Shown here: piece by piece, positions 8,827 to 16,490 of the stretch
How positions within the stretch are numbered: the first letter of the stretch is position 1
Layout of the letters: every line of letters starts with the position of its first letter
DNA from: a virus
Lineage: Duplodnaviria > Caudoviricetes
DNA length: 64,000 nt
Reading direction: 5' to 3' (one strand)
Virus record (IMG/VR): IMGVR_UViG_3300014205_000019
Span: 5,544 to 69,543 of that record
Translations under genes and position numbers: made by a program
The notes under the pieces: generated by a model
Seen by the model: only the letters and a program-made list of their open reading frames with translations
The model's database searches: none
Told to the model about the DNA's origin: nothing

Positions 8827-8860
8827 AAAACAAAAGTCCCCCAACCCGGAGGTGGGGGAC
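8827..8860 (-). terminator. Intrinsic terminator closing the tRNA array
   Basis: GTCCCCCA-cctccgggt-TGGGGGAC then TTTTGTTTT on the minus strand. Confidence 0.85.
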
Positions 8861-8890
8861 TGTGGCGGTAATAGTCGGAGCGTCCTCCGA

Positions 8891-8966
8891 TGGTAGCGGC
8901 TGGTGGATTCGAACCACCGTTCTCTTGCTAATGACACAAGCGAGACGACCACTTCTCTAAGCCGCG
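8891..8966 (-). tRNA. tRNA-Met(CAT), initiator-like C1/U72 mismatch but without three G:C pairs in the anticodon stem
   Basis: Cloverleaf, loop GT-CAT-TA, TTCGAAT, ACCA. Confidence 0.8.
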
Positions 8967-8967
8967 A

Positions 8968-9076
8968 TGGTAAGAGGCCGGTACCGTCTACAAATGACGG
9001 CCCGATGCTCCTAAGACTGCTATCGCGGATTCGAACCGCCTCGTCCCCCAACGGGACGCGAACCACTTCCTAGCAG
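8968..9076 (-). ncRNA. Composite RNA 1: compact tRNA-like domain (9017-9076), TCTT, then a CCA-ended hairpin (8968-9013)
   Basis: CTGCTA/TAGCAG stem, GCGG-TTCGAAT-CCGC arm, CGTCC/GGACG arm; then GCCGTC-ATTTGTA-GACGGT hairpin ending ACCA. Confidence 0.65.
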
Positions 9077-9077
9077 A

Positions 9078-9201
9078 TGGTGGGGAGTATCTCTCATATT
9101 CTTATGGGTAAACGAGATACCGCCCAAGACTGTGTTCGAGGATTCGAACCTCACTGCCGTCTTTACAGAGGCCGGTGTGCTGCCAATTACACTACTCACA
9201 G
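9078..9201 (-). ncRNA. Composite RNA 2: degenerate Tyr-like tRNA domain (9130-9201), TCTT, then a CCA-ended hairpin
   Basis: CTGTG/CACAG stem, D arm, CT-GTA-AA-like loop, GAGG-TTCGAAT-CCTC; then GTATCTC/GAGATAC stem ending ACCA. Confidence 0.65.
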
Positions 9202-9202
9202 A

Positions 9203-9277
9203 TGGTTCCAGCGACACGGAATCGAACCTGCTCAGACGGTTTAAAAGACCGCTATGCAACCTTTACATCACGCTGGA
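9203..9277 (-). tRNA. tRNA-Lys(TTT)
   Basis: Cloverleaf, CT-TTT-AA, ACCA. Confidence 0.92.
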
Positions 9278-9278
9278 A

Positions 9279-9361
9279 TGTTCCTTCACGGAGGGATCGA
9301 ACCTACCACTTCTTACTTTGTTTACCTTAAGTAAGCGTACTACCGTTGTACTAGCGAAAGA
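9279..9361 (-). tRNA. Atypical tRNA-like gene with 14-nt anticodon loop and 3' ACA
   Basis: Acceptor TCTTTCG/TGAAGGA, stem CTTAC/GTAAG around TTAAGGTAAACAAA, T-loop TTCGATC. Confidence 0.6.
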
Positions 9362-9435
9362 TGGTTCGGGATTAAGGATTCGAACCCTAACTAAGTGGTT
9401 CAGAGCCACTCGACCTACCTTTAGTCTAATCCCGA
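9362..9435 (-). tRNA. tRNA-Gln(CTG)
   Basis: Cloverleaf, CT-CTG-AA, ACCA. Confidence 0.93.
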
Positions 9436-9436
9436 A

Positions 9437-9513
9437 TGGCGACCCTGACGGGAGTTGAACCCGCTGCCTCTTCCTTGACAGGGAAGTGTGCATAACCGTT
9501 ACACTTCAAGGCC
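9437..9513 (-). tRNA. tRNA-Asp(GTC)
   Basis: Cloverleaf, CT-GTC-AA, GCCA. Confidence 0.93.
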
Positions 9514-9515
9514 AT

Positions 9516-9591
9516 TGGTACCACACGACAGAATCGAACTGTCAACCTTTCGCGTATCAGGCGAATGCTCTAACCGTTGCGCTAGTGTGGC
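9516..9591 (-). tRNA. tRNA-Ile(GAT)
   Basis: Cloverleaf, CT-GAT-AC, ACCA. Confidence 0.93.
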
Positions 9592-9592
9592 A

Positions 9593-9666
9593 TGGTGGGT
9601 TATCAGAGAATCGAACTCTGGTGGGCGTGGTAAGAGCACGCTAGTCTACCACTGACTTAATAACCC
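9593..9666 (-). tRNA. tRNA-Lys(CTT)
   Basis: Cloverleaf, CT-CTT-AC, ACCA. Confidence 0.93.
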
Positions 9667-9667
9667 G

Positions 9668-9755
9668 TGGTGCAAGGTGTAGGATTCGAACCTACGAAGC
9701 CTGTTAGAGCCTCGGTTTTACAGACCGCTTACTTTGTCCGCTTGTATAACCTTGC
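9668..9755 (-). tRNA. tRNA-Tyr(GTA)
   Basis: Long variable arm, CT-GTA-AA, ACCA. Confidence 0.93.
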
Positions 9756-9756
9756 G

Positions 9757-9831
9757 TGGTAGCCCCAACGGGACTCAAACCCGTTTCCAGAACTTGAAAG
9801 GTTCTTATCCTAATCCATAGACGATGGGGCC
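9757..9831 (-). tRNA. tRNA-Glu(TTC)
   Basis: Cloverleaf, CT-TTC-AA, ACCA. Confidence 0.92.
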
Positions 9832-10121
9832 ATGCGATTGAAAGTACGAACAGCGTGGCAGTTAGCACATACTATTTCGCACTTCATTAACTCATCCACC
9901 AGTTTGTCAAGTCCGACTCTGTGATAATGAGCAATGTTAAATTTCTTTTCACCTTTTACATGGTCGAACTGCATAGCGGCTTCGTGATATTGTACACCAC
10001 AATCCTTACAAGGCTTGTCTTTCCATGCTAAAACAACTTGGCGCAGTAGATTGGCCCGTTCGTATATCTGAGCCTTTCTCTTGTCCCTATTGTTTTGGTA
10101 ATAGGTCTGATTGTAATTCAT
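9810..10121 (-). CDS. HNH endonuclease 1 (homing-type)
   Basis: CKDCG...QFDH...CEIVCANCHAVRT; stop lies inside tRNA-Glu. Confidence 0.85.
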   Translation of the reverse strand: MNYNQTYYQNNRDKRKAQIYERANLLRQVVLAWKDKPCKDCGVQYHEAAMQFDHVKGEKKFNIAHYHRVGLDKLVDELMKCEIVCANCHAVRTFNRMAPSSMD

Positions 10122-10125
10122 CAGA

Positions 10126-10199
10126 TGGTACCCCTTGACAGAATCGAACTGCCGCTGGATGTGTGTAAAACATCTACACTACCATTATGTTAAAGGGGC
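10126..10199 (-). tRNA. tRNA-Val(TAC)
   Basis: Cloverleaf, TT-TAC-AC, ACCA. Confidence 0.92.
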
Positions 10200-10200
10200 T

Positions 10201-10233
10201 TGGCAGGAGGGACGGTGTTGGGCCCGCCCTCCT
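10201..10233 (-). ncRNA. 33-nt CCA-ended minihelix
   Basis: 7-bp AGGAGGG/CCCTCCT plus CGG/CCG, G discriminator, CCA; 1-nt spacers. Confidence 0.7.
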
Positions 10234-10234
10234 A

Positions 10235-10308
10235 TGGCTCCACATCAAGGAATCGAACCCTGATAGCAACGTTAACAGCGTCGCGTCTTACCGTTAGACG
10301 AATGTGGA
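10235..10308 (-). tRNA. tRNA-Asn(GTT)
   Basis: Cloverleaf, CT-GTT-AA, GCCA. Confidence 0.93.
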
Positions 10309-10309
10309 A

Positions 10310-10395
10310 TGGTACACCTAGAGGGACTCGAACCCCCATGAACTTTCGTTCGCTGCGTTCTAAGCGCAGTATGTCTGCCGTTTCATCATAGGTGC
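10310..10395 (-). tRNA. tRNA-Leu(TAG)
   Basis: Long variable arm, CT-TAG-AA, ACCA. Confidence 0.93.
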
Positions 10396-10396
10396 A

Positions 10397-10433
10397 TGGT
10401 GACCTGTCTACATTCTATTTCAAATGGTGGGCC
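10397..10433 (-). ncRNA. CCA-ended spacer RNA (weak local hairpin, strong long-range complement)
   Basis: GGCC/GGTC plus CATTT/GAATG stems, ACCA end, internal ACCA at 10425-10428. Confidence 0.45.
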
Positions 10434-10434
10434 G

Positions 10435-10509
10435 TGGTGCCGCCTGTGGGTATCGCGCCCACTACCTCTGGTTTTTCAGACCAGCGCTCTACTATTGTGC
10501 TAAGGCGGC
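10435..10509 (-). tRNA. tRNA-Phe(GAA) with non-canonical T-loop
   Basis: CT-GAA-AA; T-loop CGCGATA; D-loop without GG; ACCA. Confidence 0.88.
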
Positions 10510-10557
10510 TTAGATAGGTCAGGCAAATTCCGTGGAGTTCGCCCGACCCACTAACTT

Positions 10558-10583
10558 TGGAGCCAGAGGATTCGGATTCTGGC
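10558..10583 (-). ncRNA. 26-nt CCA-ended microhelix
   Basis: GCCAGA-ATCCGAATCC-TCTGGC, U discriminator, CCA. Confidence 0.7.
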
Positions 10584-10584
10584 A

Positions 10585-10672
10585 TGGTGTCAATGAGGGG
10601 ACTCGAACCCCTACGCGCCGTGGGCGCACTACGTTCTCAGCGTAGCCTGTTTGCCAATTACAGCACATCGAC
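10585..10672 (-). tRNA. tRNA-Leu(GAG)
   Basis: Long variable arm, CT-GAG-AA, ACCA. Confidence 0.93.
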
Positions 10673-10746
10673 TGGTCAGGGTAGGGAGAATCGAACTCCC
10701 GTCTTACCGTTCCAAGCGGCATACGTTACCACTACACTATACCCTG
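10673..10746 (-). tRNA. tRNA-Pro(TGG)
   Basis: Cloverleaf, CT-TGG-AA, ACCA. Confidence 0.93.
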
Positions 10747-10747
10747 A

Positions 10748-10804
10748 TGGTGCCGCCCTTGGGGATTTGCTATTCGCACCCCTACAGCCTTGGAGACGGG
10801 CGAC
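10748..10804 (-). ncRNA. 57-nt mini-tRNA without anticodon arm
   Basis: 7-bp GTCGCCC/GGGCGGC, tiny hairpin, GGGG/CCCC arm, ACCA. Confidence 0.7.
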
Positions 10805-10805
10805 A

Positions 10806-10891
10806 TGGCGGACTCTGTGAGATTCGAACTCACGGGGCTTGCACCCACTAGTTTAGCAAACTAGGTCGTTAAACCACTCCGACAAGAATCC
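10806..10891 (-). tRNA. tRNA-Ser(GCT)
   Basis: Long variable arm, TT-GCT-AA, GCCA. Confidence 0.93.
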
Positions 10892-10892
10892 G

Positions 10893-10927
10893 TGGTGGGC
10901 CTGCCTCATGTTGATTGCTGCAAGCCC
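10893..10927 (-). ncRNA. 35-nt CCA-ended minihelix
   Basis: GGGCTTGC/GCAGGCCC stem, ACCA, 1-nt spacers. Confidence 0.7.
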
Positions 10928-10928
10928 G

Positions 10929-10961
10929 TGGTGGCCCCTCCCGTATAAAGCGCGAGAGGCC
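10929..10961 (-). ncRNA. 33-nt CCA-ended minihelix
   Basis: GGCCTCTC/GAGGGGCC plus CG/CG, 7-nt loop CTTTATA, ACCA. Confidence 0.7.
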
Positions 10962-10962
10962 G

Positions 10963-11038
10963 TGGTGACGCATAGGGGATTCGAACCCCTGACTTCTACC
11001 TTGAGAGGGTAGCGTCCTAACCGCTAGACGAATGCGCC
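10963..11038 (-). tRNA. tRNA-Glu(CTC)
   Basis: Cloverleaf, CT-CTC-AA, ACCA. Confidence 0.93.
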
Positions 11039-11040
11039 AT

Positions 11041-11139
11041 AGAAGGAAGGGAGAGTGTGGATATTGTTTGGCAATATCGCGGCCCACCCTCTGCCTCTTC
11101 CCTCCGTGGGGGTTCCGAGTCCGCATCTCTTGGCTCGGT
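11041..11139 (-). ncRNA. Putative structured leader RNA (long irregular hairpin)
   Basis: GATATTG/CAATATC apical stem, purine/pyrimidine outer stem, 5' CCGAG/CTCGG hairpin; starts right after the promoter. Confidence 0.4.
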
Positions 11140-11145
11140 CTTACA

Positions 11146-11174
11146 ATTATAGCACAATGACAACTAGTTGTCAA
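11146..11174 (-). promoter_or_regulatory. Internal consensus sigma70 promoter with overlapping 16-bp palindrome
   Basis: TTGACA-N17-TATAAT with TG; TGACAACTAGTTGTCA at 11158-11173. Confidence 0.88.
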
Positions 11175-11194
11175 GTACCCTTGTAAGTTTATTT

Positions 11195-11269
11195 TGGTAC
11201 CCATATCAGGACTCGAACCTGACTTCTATCTTTAGGAGAGATAGGTAATATCCACTATACTATATGGGC
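11195..11269 (-). tRNA. tRNA-Arg(CCT)
   Basis: Cloverleaf, CT-CCT-AA, ACCA. Confidence 0.9.
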
Positions 11270-11484
11270 GGGTGACAGGAACACATACAATCAAAGTTTC
11301 TACACTGTTGGTGGAACCACGAACGTGTGGCTCTGTAGTCTAGGGCACACAATACTGAAAGAGTTGTGTTGGGGCCTAATTTATTCAGCATACTCTTTTG
11401 TGTGAGACTAAGAGAGTTTTCTACTCTACAATCTTTTGTGTGGCCCGACCCAACAGGTAGGTGACACGAGATGCAGTTTTCCAT
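11260..11484 (-). CDS. Cys-rich small protein, CxNF[DE]CxCxCH family member 1
   Basis: C-terminal QCRNFDCMCSCH; stop inside tRNA-Arg(CCT). Confidence 0.7.
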   Translation of the reverse strand: MENCISCHLPVGSGHTKDCRVENSLSLTQKSMLNKLGPNTTLSVLCALDYRATRSWFHQQCRNFDCMCSCHPPI

Positions 11485-11501
11485 AGGTATCCTTTCGAAT
11501 A

Positions 11502-11587
11502 TGGCGGAAAGGGCGAGAGTCGAACTCGCAAGGCTTACGCTCGTCCGTTTTCAAGACGGGTTCCGTTGCCAATCGGATAACCTTTCC
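11502..11587 (-). tRNA. tRNA-Ser(TGA)
   Basis: Long variable arm, CT-TGA-AA, GCCA. Confidence 0.93.
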
Positions 11588-11588
11588 G

Positions 11589-11630
11589 TGGTGGGGTACC
11601 CGGCGTCACTCGGGAGACTTTCTTTACCCC
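11589..11630 (-). ncRNA. 42-nt three-way mini-tRNA
   Basis: GGGGTA/TACCCC, AGA-AAG-TCT mini-hairpin, CCCG-8nt-CGGG arm, ACCA. Confidence 0.7.
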
Positions 11631-11631
11631 G

Positions 11632-11706
11632 TGGTGCCCTCGTTGGGAATCGAACCCAAACCTCAACCTTCGCAGGGTTGCATCGTATCCGTTGGACTAC
11701 GAGGAC
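11632..11706 (-). tRNA. tRNA-Arg(GCG)
   Basis: CAACC-CT-GCG-AA-GGTTG, ACCA. Confidence 0.9.
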
Positions 11707-11951
11707 TGTTCGTGACAACTACATTCACAATCAAAATTCTTACAAAAGTAGTGAGCAGTCCTGTAGTTTTCTGAAACATAATCAAAAATGTTTCCGGGAT
11801 GTGTACAAGCCTTACTAACTAATTTGTTAAGCCAATTGAAATCTTCTCCACTTTCAGGACAGTTTACGAAATGATAAAAGTTATGTCCTTTGTGTACTCT
11901 CTGTTTACAAACGTCGCAAACTACATAACCGTCGCTGGTTTCTCGTGGCAT
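11697..11951 (-). CDS. Cys-rich small protein, family member 2
   Basis: FCKNFDCECSCH; ATG at 11951; stop inside tRNA-Arg(GCG). Confidence 0.72.
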   Translation of the reverse strand: MPRETSDGYVVCDVCKQRVHKGHNFYHFVNCPESGEDFNWLNKLVSKACTHPGNIFDYVSENYRTAHYFCKNFDCECSCHEQSS

Positions 11952-11966
11952 GGTGTGACCTTTCAC
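11951..11966 (-). ncRNA. 16-nt CCA-ended tetraloop hairpin carrying the SD of the next ORF
   Basis: GTGA-AAGG-TCAC-ACCA; the last A is the A of the ATG. Confidence 0.5.
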
Positions 11967-11967
11967 A

Positions 11968-12043
11968 TGGAGCAGGATATGGGAATCGAACCCATTACCT
12001 CTTCTTTACCAAAGAAGTGTTCGTCCGTATGAACTTAACCTGC
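11968..12043 (-). tRNA. tRNA-Thr(GGT)
   Basis: TT-GGT-AA, TCCA. Confidence 0.9.
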
Positions 12044-12184
12044 ATTCTTCTTATGACACCGACAGCCGCAATCAAAATTTGCACACTTACTGTGGAACTC
12101 CTGAATTCGCGGGTCGGCCGACATAGTTGCATGGAAGCAATATCCGCTTTTAAGAGTGTTTAATTCTTCTCTTATAGTCGTCAT
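12035..12184 (-). CDS. Cys-rich small protein, family member 3 (49 aa, not in ORF track)
   Basis: Hand-translated MTTIREELNTLKSGYCFH...KCANFDCGCRCHKKNAG*; stop inside tRNA-Thr. Confidence 0.72.
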   Translation of the reverse strand: MTTIREELNTLKSGYCFHATMSADPRIQEFHSKCANFDCGCRCHKKNAG

Positions 12185-12327
12185 TATGATGCGTGACATT
12201 TACACTGACACTCGAAGTTTGCACACTTTCTGTGTAAGTCGGCAGCCACGCGTAAATGTTGGGCCGACTCTGCTGCATAGCAGTAACGTGATAGAACCTC
12301 ATTATACATATTAAATATGTTTCCCAT
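12184..12327 (-). CDS. Cys-rich small protein, family member 4 (47 aa)
   Basis: MGNIFNMY...YCY...KCANFECQCKCHAS*; TAATG coupling to member 3. Confidence 0.72.
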   Translation of the reverse strand: MGNIFNMYNEVLSRYCYAAESAQHLRVAADLHRKCANFECQCKCHAS

Positions 12328-12330
12328 AGT

Positions 12331-12344
12331 TGGTACCTTTCGGT
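12331..12344 (-). ncRNA. 14-nt CCA-ended GAAA-tetraloop hairpin carrying an SD
   Basis: ACC-GAAA-GGT-ACCA then ACT ATG. Confidence 0.45.
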
Positions 12345-12345
12345 A

Positions 12346-12420
12346 TGGTAGCCCCTGTAGGAATCGAACCCACATCACAACGTTCGAAGCGTCGCGTCGT
12401 ATCCATTAGACTAAGGGGCC
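12346..12420 (-). tRNA. tRNA-Arg(TCG)
   Basis: CT-TCG-AA, ACCA. Confidence 0.92.
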
Positions 12421-12429
12421 AAGGTGCCC

Positions 12430-12774
12430 TTAACGGGCTAGTTGGGCTGTGCTTAGAATGGCTAGAACGGTTTGCCACTCGGTATTACCATAAAGTGTAT
12501 CATCAATTAAAACTGCTGTGGCTGTATGTAAACCATCGAGGGTTTGGTCGTCCTCAAAAAATGGAGCATGTGATATGCCAGAACCCGATAGGTGAAATAG
12601 TAGTTTAGACATTTGTTGAGTATTACCACCCTCTACAATCACGAGGGTCTTGTGTTCTTTGGCCCATTTACGCGCCTTCTTGTCTTTGAGTAAGATTTCG
12701 GCTACGGCGTGTGCCGCCTGAATACCCTTTTGCATCGTTGAAAGATGCGAGTGAACAACTACATAGAGTTTCAA
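12430..12774 (-). CDS. Peptidyl-tRNA hydrolase 2 (PTH2)-like protein
   Basis: KLYVVVHSHLSTMQKGIQAAHAVAE resembles the PTH2 N-terminal motif (K-x-A-Q-x-x-H-A); later TLVIV and HTATAV segments; 114 aa. Confidence 0.7.
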   Translation of the reverse strand: MKLYVVVHSHLSTMQKGIQAAHAVAEILLKDKKARKWAKEHKTLVIVEGGNTQQMSKLLFHLSGSGISHAPFFEDDQTLDGLHTATAVLIDDTLYGNTEWQTVLAILSTAQLAR

Positions 12775-12857
12775 CTTCTATTCCTTATCTCGCAGGCACA
12801 AAAATTACACTCTCTTGCGTGTAAAAGGTGACCACATTTACAAAGTCGAACTAGCAT
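12771..12857 (-). CDS. 28-aa Zn-finger-like peptide
   Basis: Hand-translated MLVRLCKCGHLLHARECNFCACEIRNRS*; SD GAAAGGAG. Confidence 0.55.
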   Translation of the reverse strand: MLVRLCKCGHLLHARECNFCACEIRNRS

Positions 12858-12861
12858 AGTT

Positions 12862-12879
12862 TGGTGCTCCTTTCTAAGC
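12862..12879 (-). ncRNA. 18-nt CCA-ended hairpin carrying an SD
   Basis: GCTT-AGAAAG-GAGC-ACCA then AACT ATG. Confidence 0.45.
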
Positions 12880-12880
12880 A

Positions 12881-12965
12881 TGGTACAGCCTACGGGATTC
12901 GAACCCGTACTCCGTTAGGAACCAATTTTTAAGATTGGCGTGTCTACCGATTTCACCACGGCTGC
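12881..12965 (-). tRNA. tRNA-Leu(TAA)
   Basis: Long variable arm, CT-TAA-AA, ACCA. Confidence 0.93.
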
Positions 12966-12966
12966 A

Positions 12967-13010
12967 TGGTGGGACGCTCCGGGCAAATTCGGAGAAGCAC
13001 TCTTCATCCC
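12967..13010 (-). ncRNA. 44-nt three-way mini-tRNA
   Basis: GGGATG/CGTCCC, AAG-AGTG-CTT mini-hairpin, CTCCG-8nt-CGGAG arm, ACCA. Confidence 0.7.
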
Positions 13011-13011
13011 G

Positions 13012-13097
13012 TGGCGGACAGGGGGAGATTCGAACTCCCGACCCTTTCGGGTACTACTTTTCCAGAGGAGCGCACTAGACCACTATGCGACCTGTCC
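13012..13097 (-). tRNA. tRNA-Ser(GGA)
   Basis: Long variable arm, CT-GGA-AA, GCCA. Confidence 0.9.
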
Positions 13098-13448
13098 TTG
13101 TCTACGATTAAATGTTCTTATAGCATGACAATTAGCACATACTATCTCACATTTACTAATTTCTAAGAGAATTCTTTTCCAACTTATATTGGTGGTAATC
13201 CCTCTACTTATGTTGAATACTTTATCTTCTCCAATGTGATCAAACTGCATGACCGCATAATGGTATTGTACTCCACAATCAGTACAAGGAACTTCCTTTA
13301 ATTTCCTAATAAAATTACTTCTTTGGTCGTATCGTTCGAAGAAGTAATTTTTTCTACAAGATTTGCACCAAGATTGTTTTGTTCCTGTTTTCTTTTTGAA
13401 AAAGTTTATTTCTGGTAAGTGTTGGTCACATTTAGAACAGTAAAACAT
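13083..13448 (-). CDS. HNH endonuclease 2 with N-terminal Zn finger
   Basis: CSKC...WCKSC, CTDCG...QFDH...CEIVCANCHAIRT; ATG 13448 after AAAGGAG; stop inside tRNA-Ser. Confidence 0.85.
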   Translation of the reverse strand: MFYCSKCDQHLPEINFFKKKTGTKQSWCKSCRKNYFFERYDQRSNFIRKLKEVPCTDCGVQYHYAVMQFDHIGEDKVFNISRGITTNISWKRILLEISKCEIVCANCHAIRTFNRRQGQVA

Positions 13449-13463
13449 TTTGCTCCTTTGTGA

Positions 13464-13540
13464 TGGTACGGGTAGGGGGATTCGAACCCGCCACTCTTTC
13501 GCATATAAGGCGATGGCATTAACCGTCATGCTATACCCGC
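13464..13540 (-). tRNA. tRNA-Ile(TAT)
   Basis: TCGC-CT-TAT-AT-GCGA, ACCA. Confidence 0.85.
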
Positions 13541-13541
13541 G

Positions 13542-13600
13542 TGGGGCCGGTAGCAGGGACTCGCACCCTTGTATCTAGAACACTACTACTTTGTACCGGC
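13542..13600 (-). ncRNA. 59-nt mini-tRNA with acceptor and T arm, no anticodon arm
   Basis: GCCGGTA/TACCGGC, AGGG-TGCGAGT-CCCT, C discriminator, CCA. Confidence 0.7.
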
Positions 13601-13601
13601 A

Positions 13602-13676
13602 TGGTGGAGACTACGGGAATCGAACCCGTGATTCTTCTTTGCAAGAGAAGTGTGTTACCTCTAGCACTAAGTCCCC
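13602..13676 (-). tRNA. tRNA-Ala(TGC)
   Basis: CT-TGC-AA, G3:U70, ACCA. Confidence 0.94.
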
Positions 13677-13801
13677 GAAGCCCTACCAACCCGGAGGTAG
13701 TAGGGAAGAGTTTGTTGCCAACCTAACAGCAGGCCATTACGCCGCCATTTAAAGGATTCTGGTTTGCTGGCTCTCCCAATCCTTTTTCGATTGTAATTAC
13801 T

Positions 13802-14172
13802 GCAATGATGCTTAATAGCCCGGATTCTGTCAGGCCCGGTATGTAACGACGTAATTACTCGTCTCCCTGCTGGCCTGTACTGACATCTCCCTCACAACGG
13901 AATACCATCCCCGTCGTGGCCTGCGTCTAAAGCATGGCTGCCCCCTACCATATTTGGGGTTACTCGCCCGCTCCTGTACCCCGTTTCACTCGGCAAGCAA
14001 TAAGCCGATATCGTCACTGTTGGCAGGAACTCTTGCCCTTGCTAGTGGGCAGGCCGACCTTATTAGAGTCGAGCGGTTTTACATGGGTACCACCCCATGT
14101 GCGAGGCCGGAACTTGTTCCTCTATAATGTTTACCTTGCGGAACATTACAGCGTCAGAGTCCACATCATTAC
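13802..14172 (-). ncRNA. rnpB: RNase P RNA (bacterial-type ribozyme), about 371 nt
   Basis: P1 GTAATGATGT/GCATCATTGC; P2 CTGAC/GTCAG; P3 GTAATGTT/AACATTAT; P4 5' GAGGAACAAGTTCCGG (14107-14122) and 3' ACAGAATCCGGGCTA (13816-13830); GTGAAACG and CAAATA landmarks in the expected order. Confidence 0.8.
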
Positions 14173-14181
14173 TATTTGGTA

Positions 14182-14197
14182 TGGTGTCCTTGCGGAC
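14182..14197 (-). ncRNA. 16-nt CCA-ended GNRA hairpin just before the RNase P RNA
   Basis: GTCC-GCAA-GGAC-ACCA, followed by a second TACCA. Confidence 0.55.
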
Positions 14198-14198
14198 G

Positions 14199-14275
14199 TG
14201 GTGCTTGTCGTGGGATTCGAACCCACACTGTTACGTTTTTGAGACGTATCCCTCTGCCAATTGGAGTACACAAGC
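14199..14275 (-). tRNA. tRNA-Leu(CAA) with short variable loop
   Basis: TACGT-CT-CAA-AA-ACGTA, 5-nt variable region, ACCA. Confidence 0.85.
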
Positions 14276-14276
14276 A

Positions 14277-14352
14277 TGGTAGTCGCTACTGGATTCGAAC
14301 CAGTTTATCACGCTTATGAGACGTGCATCTTAACCCTGTTGATTCAGCGACC
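14277..14352 (-). tRNA. tRNA-Met(CAT), elongator (Ile2 not excluded)
   Basis: CT-CAT-AA, paired 1:72, ACCA. Confidence 0.85.
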
Positions 14353-14353
14353 G

Positions 14354-14423
14354 TGGTGCGAGTTGCTAGTCCGATTCGAACGGACGTATGTGCGACATAC
14401 CTACCTTGATTATGTAGCAACTC
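14354..14423 (-). ncRNA. 70-nt tRNA-like RNA with 9-bp acceptor and collapsed anticodon loop
   Basis: GAGTTGCTA/TAGCAACTC, GTATGT-CGC-ACATAC, GTCCG-TTCGAAT-CGGAC, GCACCA. Confidence 0.7.
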
Positions 14424-14521
14424 ATTCAATCTCTGTACTTTACTTCACCCACTCGACCAGCAGGTACCCTTAAATACTGGTTGTCTTAGCAGAGGACTGT
14501 ATTTCTGACCAGAGACTGAAT
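14424..14521 (-). ncRNA. Putative ~100-nt multibranch RNA without CCA
   Basis: 12-bp closing stem ATTCAGTCTCTG/CAGAGATTGAAT with inner ACCAG/CTGGT stem. Confidence 0.4.
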
Positions 14522-14525
14522 AGAG

Positions 14526-14553
14526 TGGCGAGAGTGTGCCCTCGTCAACTCGC
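14526..14553 (-). ncRNA. 28-nt CCA-ended microhelix
   Basis: GCGAGT/ACTCTC stem with one mismatch, GCCA end. Confidence 0.5.
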
Positions 14554-14554
14554 A

Positions 14555-14644
14555 TGGAAGATAGGGTGGGATTCGAACCCACGGAGCAAATCAATGCTCT
14601 CTCGTTTTCGAGACGAGTGCCGTAAGCCGCTTGGCTACCTATCC
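14555..14644 (-). tRNA. tRNA-Ser(CGA)
   Basis: Long variable arm, CT-CGA-AA, TCCA. Confidence 0.92.
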
Positions 14645-14645
14645 G

Positions 14646-14726
14646 TGGTTGGTGTCCTTGAAGAAGCCCGTCAGTAGATTATTTCTTCATTAGTCTACTG
14701 TTCTCACGTCACGGGACAATAAGGAC
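14646..14726 (-). ncRNA. 81-nt rod-like RNA ending ACCAACCA
   Basis: GTCCTT/AAGGAC, CCGT/ACGG and CAGTAGA/TCTACTG stems. Confidence 0.6.
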
Positions 14727-14727
14727 A

Positions 14728-14802
14728 TGGTTGAGGAAGTAGGATTCGAACCCACACCGTTTCGGTTCAAAGCCGAAAGACCTACCGTTAGTCTATTCCT
14801 CA
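14728..14802 (-). tRNA. tRNA-Gln(TTG)
   Basis: CT-TTG-AA, ACCA. Confidence 0.93.
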
Positions 14803-14803
14803 A

Positions 14804-14879
14804 TGGGGCGGAGTACGGGAATCGAACCCGCATTTACCGGGTCACAGCCGGTCGCTTGTACCAATAAGTTAACTCCACC
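14804..14879 (-). tRNA. tRNA-His(GTG)
   Basis: CT-GTG-AC, G-1:C73, CCA. Confidence 0.93.
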
Positions 14880-14880
14880 G

Positions 14881-14955
14881 TGGAGAGCCTAGCCAGAGTC
14901 GAACTGGCCTAAAGTAGTTTTGCAGACTACTGCCTTGCCGCTTGGCTATAGGCTC
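14881..14955 (-). tRNA. tRNA-Cys(GCA)
   Basis: CT-GCA-AA, U73, CCA. Confidence 0.93.
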
Positions 14956-14956
14956 A

Positions 14957-15002
14957 TGGTGCCCGGCCTACCTACGGTTCAATTACCGAATTGAGACTAG
15001 GC
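14957..15002 (-). ncRNA. 46-nt CCA-ended mini-tRNA
   Basis: GCCTAG/CCGGGC stem, CAATT-CGGT-AATTG arm, ACCA. Confidence 0.6.
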
Positions 15003-15003
15003 A

Positions 15004-15077
15004 TGGTGCAGCATGGGAGAATCGGACTCCCGCGTCAACGTTGGCAACGTTGCATTGTACCATTCAATTAATGCTGC
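15004..15077 (-). tRNA. tRNA-Gly(GCC)
   Basis: TT-GCC-AA, T-loop TCCGATT, ACCA. Confidence 0.9.
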
Positions 15078-15151
15078 TGGCACGGTGTGTAGGAATCGAA
15101 CCCACGTCTAGAGTTTTGGAGACACTAGTATTACCATTATACGAACACCGC
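15078..15151 (-). tRNA. tRNA-Trp(CCA)
   Basis: CT-CCA-AA, GCCA. Confidence 0.92.
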
Positions 15152-15152
15152 A

Positions 15153-15226
15153 TGGAGCATCATGCCGGTGCTGCCCCGGCGACCTCTGCTTGGAAGGCAG
15201 ATACGTTTCTGTTACGCCAATGATGC
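15153..15226 (-). tRNA. tRNA-Gly(TCC) with remodelled elbow
   Basis: CT-TCC-AA; T-loop GGCAGCA; D-loop without GG; U73 CCA. Confidence 0.85.
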
Positions 15227-15553
15227 TTGATATCTGTCGTATGTTCGTTGTCTGTGACAGTTAGAACAGACAAGTTCACACTTCTTGATTTCGTTTAATA
15301 TTCTTTCTTCACTGTAGGTTTGTCGTACCATAACCGAAATTTCTTTGAATTTCTTTTCATTTCCAAGATGGTCAAATTCCATAACATATGGGGGATATTT
15401 TATACCACAATCGGTACAGGGCTTATTTTTAAGACTATTTACAAACTCAAGTCTTTTCGTCCTGAGTTCCTTGTTCTTAAGGATATATTGTTCCTTATTT
15501 CTTTGGTAGTGTGTTAGTCCATCGACTTCACATTGAGAGCCTTCTTTCTTCAT
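15212..15553 (-). CDS. HNH endonuclease 3
   Basis: CTDCG...MEFDH...CELVCSNCHRQRT; own promoter; stop inside tRNA-Gly. Confidence 0.85.
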   Translation of the reverse strand: MKKEGSQCEVDGLTHYQRNKEQYILKNKELRTKRLEFVNSLKNKPCTDCGIKYPPYVMEFDHLGNEKKFKEISVMVRQTYSEERILNEIKKCELVCSNCHRQRTYDRYQASLA

Positions 15554-15561
15554 TACTTCCA

Positions 15562-15590
15562 ATTATATCATATTTTGGAAGTTTTGTCAA
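15562..15590 (-). promoter_or_regulatory. Consensus sigma70 promoter
   Basis: TTGACA-N17-TATAAT with TG; ATG 8 nt after the -10 box. Confidence 0.88.
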
Positions 15591-15711
15591 GTATGGAAGG
15601 CAGATTTCATACCATTAGAACAACGTCCCGTAACCTTACTTCTTACGCCTACGTGGGCCTATCGCGGCCTCCATGAGCGCCTTACCTATAATGTCTGCTG
15701 TGATGGTCTTT

Positions 15712-16020
15712 CTATCGGTCGTCGGACTCGTATTCTTCTTGCGAGTCGTCTTGCCTGTAGTATTCTTGCTTGCCATGCGTGAACCTCCGTGCCCTGCGAA
15801 CCGCCTCGGGAGGGGCTAGGGCCAGCACCTCGACAGGGAGGGCTTCCGTTCTCCCCTTCGGGGAGGGTGTCGCCTCCTGCTCGGTCAAATAACGGTGTCG
15901 CCCACAACTTATGCAGACGATTTTGTCCTCCGAGTGGATGCGCCCCATGCCCTGCCCGTATACAATATACCCGGCTTGGTATTCAAGGAACCCACCACAA
16001 TGTTCTCGGGGACACTTCAT
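15712..16020 (-). CDS. Zn-ribbon protein with acidic tail
   Basis: CPREHCGG...CISCGR. Confidence 0.6.
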   Translation of the reverse strand: MKCPREHCGGFLEYQAGYIVYGQGMGRIHSEDKIVCISCGRHRYLTEQEATPSPKGRTEALPVEVLALAPPEAVRRARRFTHGKQEYYRQDDSQEEYESDDR

Positions 16021-16106
16021 TACTTCTTCTTTCCGCCCTTCTTCTTAGGTGCGTCGTCTTTCTTCATCCAAGGTGGTAACTTCTTAGCCTTCTTCTTTAC
16101 TGGCAT
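16020..16106 (-). CDS. 28-aa Lys-rich peptide
   Basis: Hand-translated MPVKKKAKKLPPWMKKDDAPKKKGGKKK*; SD GGGGGTG; TAATG coupling. Confidence 0.6.
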   Translation of the reverse strand: MPVKKKAKKLPPWMKKDDAPKKKGGKKK

Positions 16107-16129
16107 TCATTCACCCCCGTGTTATTTAT

Positions 16130-16203
16130 TGGAGCACGCACCCGGAATTGGGCCGAGAATTGGATTTTACGAGAATCCCGTCTTACCGTTAGACTATGCG
16201 TGC
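16130..16203 (-). tRNA. tRNA-Thr(CGT)
   Basis: CT-CGT-AA; T-loop CCCAATT; TCCA. Confidence 0.88.
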
Positions 16204-16204
16204 A

Positions 16205-16278
16205 TGGAGCCGAAGCGGGGAATCGAACCCCGGTAGCCGCTTTACAAGAGCGGTGCAGTACCACTGTGCTACTCCGAC
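16205..16278 (-). tRNA. tRNA-Thr(TGT)
   Basis: CT-TGT-AA, TCCA. Confidence 0.93.
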
Positions 16279-16279
16279 A

Positions 16280-16354
16280 TGGCGCCCCGCAGAGGAATCG
16301 AACCCCTATGATAACTTTAGAAGAGTTATGTCCTGTCCGTTGAACGAGCGAGGC
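16280..16354 (-). tRNA. tRNA-Arg(TCT)
   Basis: CT-TCT-AA, GCCA. Confidence 0.93.
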
Positions 16355-16461
16355 GTGCCCGTTTACCAATGGCCGGGAGAATTGTAGTAATCATCGAGCG
16401 CCCACGTACTTGCATACCATAGCGCTTCTTGAATCTCTTCTTCTCTCGGTCGGTACTTTTA

Positions 16462-16490
16462 ATTATACCACTTTCTTCATTCATTGTCAA
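16462..16490 (-). promoter_or_regulatory. Consensus sigma70 promoter at the head of the tRNA array
   Basis: TTGACA-N17-TATAAT with TG. Confidence 0.88.

Follow-up and report, generated by a model that had tools for sequence, protein, structure and literature searches.

The window analysed here is a 64,000-nt stretch of the virus record IMGVR_UViG_3300014205_000019, an uncultured phage record of 69,543 bp with direct terminal repeats. The window contains genes for terminase, major head protein, family A DNA polymerase, ribonucleotide reductase and a 3,277-aa protein, and this gene content suggests an N4-like layout. Between 8891 and 16354, on the minus strand only, there are 39 tRNA genes (36 predicted by ARAGORN and three added from Rfam, namely Gly(tcc) at 15153-15226, Lys(ttt) at 9204-9277 and a marginal tRNA-like domain at 9129-9201). 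Neighbouring tRNAs are in most cases separated by 1 nt, the genes together serve all 20 amino acids, in agreement with the complete set proposed in a first-pass annotation, and CCA is encoded in 38 of the 39 genes, the exception being an 82-nt Leu(taa) call at 9280-9361 that ends in GGAAC. Tiled head-to-tail among these tRNA genes, on the minus strand of 8968-15002, are about 18 units which have no cloverleaf and end in N-CCA. The structure, evolution and possible function of these units are the subject of this analysis; all features below lie on the minus strand of the window unless another contig is named.

Three promoters were identified at 16490, 15590 and 11174 (each a 12/12 match of the sigma-70 type with an extended -10), while only one intrinsic terminator was found, at 8852-8838. 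Three transcription units are thus delineated within 8838-16490, and all CCA units lie inside them. With three consensus promoters and a single terminator, the units are likely to be internal to long precursors. No RnpA and no CCA-adding enzyme were found among the genes of the phage, and therefore the CCA ends of its tRNAs and units must be encoded.

Six related arrays from metagenome assemblies (L002, L003/L089, L005, L172, L174 and L176) formed the comparison set, and they occupy the same genomic place with largely the same gene order. TerL identity to the window is 67% for L002, 65% for L003/L089, 50% for L172 and 48% for L005. The closest relative is L174, which holds a whole array with a PTH2-type peptidyl-tRNA hydrolase 81% identical to that of the window, and L176 is a fragment whose PTH2 is 88% identical. 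Megablast and blastn searches against cultured-phage records gave no close DNA relatives, and TerL-based scans of IMG/VR and the metagenome collection gave no further array-bearing relatives; relatives with 57% and 40% TerL identity have only 0-2 tRNAs. A DNA-pattern scan brought in L089, which carries a fourth copy of a 200-nt RNA described below, and a second pattern scan found nothing.

Each unit starts 1 nt past the preceding CCA, and its N-CCA end usually falls one base short of the next tRNA. Of the 12 short spacers that separate tRNAs in the window, 11 have an N-CCA end followed by 1 nt and then the next tRNA; these fold as hairpins, the closing helix of which adjoins the N-CCA and starts one base past the previous CCA. 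For spacers of 12-260 nt from six related arrays (n = 43), with CCA scored within 0-2 nt of the next tRNA, 31 were CCA-ended, whereas in 2000 shuffling trials the mean number was 2.3 and the highest 7. In 18 spacers the terminal helix runs unbroken for 5 bp or more in exact register; shuffling the interiors alone lowered this number to a mean of 0.79 and at most 4. The interleaving of CCA-ended units with tRNAs noted in the first-pass annotation is therefore real, and shuffling does not produce such units equally often. An iterative tiling scan recovered nearly every coordinate on the earlier list, the count being about 18 rather than about 20. A free scan for stems of at least 6 bp within 70 nt upstream of N-CCA was unspecific, with approximately 2.5 matches per kb genome-wide, although inside the array it gave 43 matches against 14 expected. 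The signal is the fixed register and tiling, not the number of hairpins as such.

The composition of the unit ends is strongly biased. A pyrimidine (U or C) occupies position -1 in 18 of 18 units, as against 47% expected from base composition; G is found at +1 in 15 of 18, and position 73 is A in 15 units, G in one, and C or U in two, so that the units share the order of acceptor stem, discriminator and CCA 3' end. As had been anticipated, tRNA scanners miss them: no unit was called by ARAGORN or matched RF00005 even at E<=1, and the nearest RF00005 case was the neighbouring tRNA-like domain at 9129-9201 (22.6 bits, E 0.44). G3:U70 is absent from every unit and present in the array's own tRNA-Ala. 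When the acceptor ends of the units were matched to those of the array tRNAs, no particular identity was found to be copied beyond generic G-C stems, and the comparison was uninformative. A reading of the units as terminators or attenuators was rejected, because no U tracts could be read from the sequence.

The units can be classified into four groups: minihelix-like units, irregular units with weak closing stems, micro-hairpins, and composite RNAs. In the minihelix-like group (about eight units), 10-12 bp are stacked on a continuous 3' strand beneath a 7-8-nt apical loop, which is the geometry of an acceptor/T-arm, and in some members a 10-nt linker bulges from the 5' strand in place of the D and anticodon arms. 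The 59-nt unit at 13542-13600 consists of a 7-bp acceptor-like stem, a linker, a T-arm-like hairpin with a 7-nt loop and C73-CCA, with 11 bp stacked on the 3' strand; it is missing from L002, L003, L174 and L176. The 44-nt unit at 12967-13010 (6-bp stem, 10-nt 5' linker, 5-bp inner stem stacked on the 3' strand, A73-CCA) is missing from L174 and L176. The 42-nt unit at 11589-11630 (6-bp stem, linker, inner stem, 12 bp stacked on the 3' strand, A73-CCA) is missing from L174, although L174 keeps the neighbouring Arg(gcg) and Ser(tga) at 96% and 100% identity. Two simpler hairpins with ACCA ends lie side by side. The 33-nt one at 10929-10961 (8 bp, one mismatch, 2 bp, 7-nt loop) is missing from L174, and the 35-nt one at 10893-10927 (8 bp, 2x2 internal loop, 2 bp, 7-nt loop) has a homologue at L174 4735-4769, which is followed there by a different, 66-nt CCA unit. 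The 57-nt unit at 10748-10804, between Ser(gct) and Pro, has a 7-bp closing stem, two inner hairpins and A73-CCA, and the unit of L003 at this site has a true T-arm. The 33-nt hairpin at 10201-10233 (7 bp, bulge, 3 bp, 8-nt loop, G73-CCA) is missing from L174 though the flanking Asn and Val are 100% identical, and an unrelated G73-CCA hairpin occupies the same site in L003. The last member is a 48-nt hairpin with ACCA at 9078-9125, which has a homologue in L174.

Irregular units have a weak closing stem of 4-6 bp. The 46-nt N-CCA unit at 14957-15002, between tRNA-Gly(gcc) and tRNA-Cys, has a weak 4-bp closing helix, inner helices and A73-CCA; its family includes L003 6128-6175 and L002 2855-2906 (z 3.4-12), and it is missing from L174, in which Gly and Cys abut. 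At 14645-14726, a 77-nt unit (14650-14726; 6-bp closing helix, A73-CCA) is followed by a second ACCA plus C and then by tRNA-Ser(cga). This unit is missing from L002, L003, L089 and L174, in which Gln(ttg) and Ser(cga) are 1 nt apart. The 37-nt unit at 10397-10433 has a weak 4-bp closing stem and A73-CCA, and the 26-nt hairpin at 10558-10583 has 6 bp and U73-CCA, followed by AAG and a 45-nt hairpin without CCA. At the latter site L174 has an unrelated 17-nt CCA hairpin and the same 45-nt downstream hairpin. This strong hairpin (10510-10554) abuts the 5' end of tRNA-Phe, and its counterpart at L174 5079-5123 keeps pairing despite changes.

The micro-hairpins have only 3-4 bp. They comprise a 16-nt hairpin between tRNA-Leu(caa) and an RNase P RNA gene (14182-14197; 4 bp, GCAA tetraloop, ACCA), the form of which is not retained in L174; an 18-nt hairpin with a Shine-Dalgarno sequence, then ACCA (12862-12879), preceding a 28-aa ORF that runs into the PTH2-like ORF; a 14-nt hairpin after tRNA-Arg(tcg) and before an ORF (12331-12344; 3 bp, GAAA tetraloop, ACCA), with an identical copy in L174 and also kept in L176; and a 16-nt hairpin of 4 bp after tRNA-Thr(ggt), the ACCA of which overlaps an ATG (11951-11966). 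Hairpins in the same register with an N-CCT end were also observed at 11485-11500 and 10103-10124 in the window and at L003 3389-3462; one of them stands before an ORF start and one lies across the first codons of an HNH ORF.

The composite RNAs are a 200-nt RNA and two pairs at 8968-9201, each with the arrangement of tRNA-like domain, TCTT and hairpin-ACCA. In one pair the 48-nt hairpin at 9078-9125 is joined by TCTT to the CCA-less tRNA-like domain at 9129-9201, and in the other a 45-nt hairpin with ACCA (8968-9012) is joined by TCTT to a CCA-less 60-nt tRNA-like domain (9017-9076; T-arm z = 5). These tandem composites have a homologous arrangement in L174, where ARAGORN calls one domain tRNA-Leu(taa). 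The conserved 200-nt structured RNA at 14354-14553 is composed of a 5' hairpin, a long central domain and a tRNA-like 3' domain, the last with a 9-bp acceptor-like stem, a canonical T-arm and ACCA, and it is not a simple minihelix. Two separately listed units dissolve into this RNA: the one at 14526 is its 5' hairpin and not a conserved CCA unit, and the one at 14354-14423 is its tRNA-like 3' domain. Among five homologues the central segment is invariant, and compensatory changes were found in 21 of 65 predicted pairs. No Rfam family matched 14354-14553, and a tmRNA reading was rejected because there was no ARAGORN tmRNA call and no Rfam match, and reading frames, judged by eye, were not conserved among homologues.

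Most units lie between tRNAs. The four micro-hairpins, which all fall within promoter-to-terminator units, occupy three tRNA-to-ORF junctions and the site ahead of the RNase P RNA. The hairpins at 11951, 12331 and 12862, which had been listed among the units, are indeed CCA hairpins, but they are 14-18 nt long, enclose the Shine-Dalgarno sequence and stand immediately before start codons. CCA was found within 15 nt of the start in none of 25 other genes of the genome, so the junction ACCA is not part of an ordinary ribosome-binding context. At the 12862-12879 junction, after tRNA-Leu(taa), a 4-bp hairpin is present in L002/L003 with three of its four pairs differing, two of them on both strands, and the hairpin is retained in L174 and L176 as well. 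For 11951-11966, a stem pair is changed from U:A to C:G in L174 and L176, and CCA is changed to CCT or CCG. Across the junction hairpins ACC is thus retained while the final A varies. In bacterial RNase P, C74 and C75 of the substrate pair with the ribozyme, and the retention of ACC with a variable last A fits this pairing.

The same junctions might suggest that micro-hairpins, and perhaps other units, act in cis: lying flush with the 5' end left by the cut, a hairpin would shield monophosphorylated mRNA from 5'-end-dependent RNases and gate the Shine-Dalgarno sequence. The enclosure of Shine-Dalgarno sequences by three hairpins directly before start codons, and the conservation of orthologous junction hairpins with compensatory changes, are what such a role would predict. 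However, it covers only 3-5 of the approximately 18 units, since between-tRNA units precede no ORF, and as an explanation of the array it is very unlikely. For the micro-hairpins themselves, an influence on mRNA stability or translation may complement the processing function proposed below.

All relatives hold CCA-ended non-tRNA units, roughly 2-9 in each compared with about 18 in the window. The small number of relatives leaves few observations for any one unit and makes per-unit covariation statistics thin. In the unit at 10748-10804 the interior 30 nt are identical to those of L174, while the closing stem differs on both strands at most positions and still pairs. The unit between Tyr and Lys in L002/L003 shows a change from G:C to A:U. 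The units at 12967-13010 and 11589-11630, which are probable paralogues, have pairs 4 and 6 of the acceptor-like stem changed on both sides. Strain variants, read from DNA contigs of runs including X2, X4 and X5, point in the same direction: in a wastewater run they are confined to loops, linkers and the discriminator, apart from one recurrent change from G:U to G:C. This G:U pair of 10397-10433 is G:C in L174 and in runs X2, X4 and X5. In strain X2, the unit at 13542-13600 has three linker changes, one discriminator change and none in stems, and the variants of 10201-10233 are in the loop. These comparisons indicate that the helices of the units are under selection for pairing.

Sequence turnover is extensive. 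Seven units of the window are missing from L174, with the flanking tRNAs abutting by one base, and in two cases these flanks are 96-100% identical. Where different phages carry units at one and the same junction (as at Asn-to-Val, ahead of Leu(tag) and ahead of Phe), these units are often unrelated in sequence while the hairpin-N-CCA form is kept. The tRNAs themselves are mosaic: comparison of window 8891-16354 with L174 400-6713 revealed that Ala, Asn, Val, Ser(tga) and Ile(gat) are 99-100% identical, while their immediate neighbours Ile(tat), Leu(taa), Tyr, Lys(ctt) and Gly(tcc) are only 60-80% identical. This alternation indicates exchange cassette by cassette. HNH-type ORFs at 9810-10121, 13083-13448 and 15212-15562 come and go with the array mosaic. 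The ending common to every cassette, CCA plus a pyrimidine-rich base, places short direct repeats on either side of each unit, and these would permit precise loss or gain of units.

Such turnover raises the question of whether the units are debris of tRNA genes or recombination scars that have kept CCA and have no selected role. Truncated tRNAs do exist in these arrays. L002 4500-4535 is a perfect 3' half of tRNA-Arg(tcg) (z = 25), T-arms are kept in L003 2871-2927 and in window 9017-9076, and near-complete degenerate tRNAs are among the units of L005 and L172. (At L172 835-909, on the minus strand, ARAGORN also predicts a tRNA with a four-base anticodon, ttaa.) The cassette mosaic, in which tRNA alleles match L174 at either 100% or 60-80% identity, and gain and loss precisely at CCA microhomologies would likewise be expected of debris. 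However, when compared with the tRNAs of the arrays, only a minority of units scored above shuffles and most were no better. In addition, register-exact terminal helices are about 20 times commoner than in shuffles, pairing in homologous units survives changes on both strands, every unit has a pyrimidine at -1, and unselected inserts between CCA repeats would be easily deleted. An origin of the whole set as unselected debris is therefore unlikely. The first-pass claim of selection on structure rather than tRNA decay accordingly holds in its first part, as the compensatory changes it called for in homologous arrays are present and strain variants fall in loops or turn G:U into G:C, whereas its second part needs qualification, since a minority of units are derived from tRNAs and several keep a T-arm.

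Two further genes in the array concern tRNA metabolism. Between tRNA-Leu(caa) and tRNA-Ala, 13811-14166 matches the class B RNase P RNA model RF00011 (48.9 bits, E 2e-12) over its full length (positions 1-365), with a score below the gathering threshold; the alignment includes both P4 strands, J11/12 and a GGU-containing loop segment. In L005, an unambiguous class A RNase P RNA was identified at 1640-1999 (207 bits), and the syntenic gaps of L002, L003 and L174 end in the same P4 3' strand motif. The window thus encodes a phage RNase P RNA. The second gene is the PTH2-type ORF at 12430-12774 (Pfam 27.4 bits, cut-off 23), which is conserved in relatives (L003 3698-4057, L174 3314-3685, L176 582-926). 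A homologue 44% identical is present on an unrelated T4-like contig (L175). Several small Cys-rich ORFs were also found at 11260-12326, between the Arg and Thr tRNAs, with C-termini of the C-x-N-F-D/E-C-x-C-x-C-H type and no Pfam match. Ahead of tRNA-Glu(ctc), a leader of about 95 nt with a long hairpin and a promoter is conserved (window 11039-11194, L002 4125-4259, L003 3096-3225, L174 4499-4657), and ACCA plus 1 nt stands at its end in L002 and not in the window.

With moderate confidence, we propose that the units are RNase P 'punctuation' cassettes of the three long tRNA/ORF transcripts. The units have a helix at the predicted cleavage site, a single-stranded RCCA and favourable residues at -1 and +1. 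For the model hairpin pMini3bp, cleavage rests on the contact of N-1 with A248 and on RCCA contacts, and substrates with U or C at -1 are cleaved faster than those with A or G (PMC3874170). Each unit would accordingly offer the minimum that RNase P needs, namely a helix from +1, a pyrimidine at -1, usually G at +1, and a single-stranded A/N-CCA. A cut at the 5' side of the unit would release the tRNA upstream, complete with encoded CCA and one further base, requiring no other 3' nuclease, and the same cut would make the unit, or an mRNA led by a micro-hairpin, a separate molecule. At a tRNA-to-ORF junction the product would be an mRNA with a hairpin at its 5' end, and the next cut downstream would trim the unit's own 3' side. 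The enzyme might be the host holoenzyme, the phage RNA of 13811-14166 with host RnpA, or both. The array would evolve by swap or loss of whole cassettes at CCA junctions, some inserts being truncated tRNAs and many having no traceable origin; stems would be conserved while sequences turn over because only inserts obeying this grammar persist during cassette exchange. From these sequence features we infer both RNase P cleavage at the unit sites and cleavage as the reason for the upkeep of the units.

Four functions had been put forward for the units, and that of dedicated processing signals fits best, because of the -1 pyrimidine, G+1, A73-CCA, the polycistronic setting, the phage RNase P RNA and the tRNA-to-ORF placement. 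Nothing in the present results appears to favour the other three (decoys, puromycin-like acceptors and amino-acid donors). Several observations nevertheless weigh against punctuation. Units between tRNAs are unneeded for processing, since tRNAs abut by 1 nt elsewhere in the same arrays, and two of the seven tRNA-to-ORF junctions are without any such hairpin. Some stems greatly exceed the length required by RNase P (14 bp in L003 1908-1966), and the loops of most units are not T-loop-like. The unit number of the window is about twice that of any relative, with seven missing from L174, and this surplus points to gain or retention beyond what a purely passive role predicts.

The surplus bears on a reading in which released CCA-ended minihelices accumulate and act in trans as acceptor-end decoys or sponges, or are aminoacylated. 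A pool of anticodon-less mimics released by RNase P at tRNA-like amounts would divert host factors that read only the stem-N-CCA end, or would be charged for uses other than decoding; candidate targets are defence toxins by which the CCA end or the aminoacyl ester is modified, CCA enzyme, EF-Tu and synthetases, and the conserved PTH2-type hydrolase would belong to the same acceptor-end toolkit. Besides the expansion in this phage, many copies lie beneath three consensus promoters, the helices appear to be selected, about eight units have the 12-bp minihelix geometry accepted by many tRNA enzymes, and conservation of PTH2 inside the array suggests that the phage invests in acceptor-end chemistry. 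We consider this reading somewhat unlikely, however, because single units are dispensable between close relatives, neither G3:U70 nor any specific tRNA acceptor identity is copied, the micro-hairpins, at 3-4 bp, fall below the size that most tRNA enzymes require, the array has no linked defence or counter-defence gene, and the natural analogue, the t-element, is uncharged (PMC11658184). If true, a trans-acting role would be categorically new.

A natural and selected array of minihelices would show that phages use the minimal RNase P grammar in vivo, notably beside a viral RNase P RNA, and would represent a compact system of about 7.5 kb in which to study the resolution of head-to-tail tRNA precursors. 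It would also bear on the evolution of tRNA arrays through cassette exchange at CCA junctions and on whether tRNA tops without anticodons have a job of their own. Annotation pipelines overlook such elements entirely. In the literature searched, coverage of which was incomplete, we found no description of natural CCA-hairpin arrays in phage tRNA clusters or of phage RNase P RNA genes.

Several known systems resemble parts of this array. The 200-nt RNA recalls T4 species 1 RNA, and T4 RNAs C and D (species 1 and 2) are its nearest described phage counterparts, being stable non-tRNA RNAs placed head-to-tail with tRNAs. T4 rnaC has a T-arm and an acceptor-like closing stem, and ACCA follows rnaD in the genome. 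However, T4 has two RNAs of 119-139 nt, in contrast to the array of 14-77-nt hairpins here, and no sequence similarity was seen by eye. The roles of RNAs C and D are unknown (PMC3014915).

Hairpin substrates of RNase P are familiar both from nature and from the laboratory. The 4.5S RNA precursor, tmRNA and the C4 RNA of P1/P7 are natural hairpin-like substrates with a CCA-like 3' end, but each is a single RNA with its own known function, and none is known to be arrayed in a tRNA operon. RCCA minihelices have served for decades as laboratory substrates of RNase P, CCA-adding enzyme, EF-Tu and synthetases. The synthetic RNase P substrates (acceptor/T-stem minihelices, pATSer and pMini3bp; PMC3874170) resemble the units in the helix from +1, the U or C at -1, the single-stranded RCCA and the absence of D and anticodon arms, and pMini3bp has the same design as the natural unit at 12331-12344 (3 bp, GAAA loop, ACCA). 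The units, as putative substrates, differ in being natural and genome-encoded, about 18 per genome, tiled with tRNAs and under selection.

The closest natural precedent is the t-element of plant mitochondria, a tRNA-like processing signal for RNase P and RNase Z (PMC1920247), which is CCA-tailed and base-modified and is not aminoacylated (PMC11658184). Like t-elements and mitochondrial tRNA punctuation, the units would be cut sites in polycistronic transcripts that set the ends of neighbouring RNAs, and a placement at RNA ends is seen for the three junction micro-hairpins and the one before the RNase P RNA. However, t-elements are homologues of tRNA genes, cloverleaf-like and without encoded CCA, whereas only a minority of the units have tRNA similarity above shuffles, and the units are mostly plain hairpins with encoded CCA, located mostly between tRNAs and in a phage. 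We therefore place the units with the known tRNA-like and hairpin processing signals of RNase P, of which a natural array in a phage would be new.

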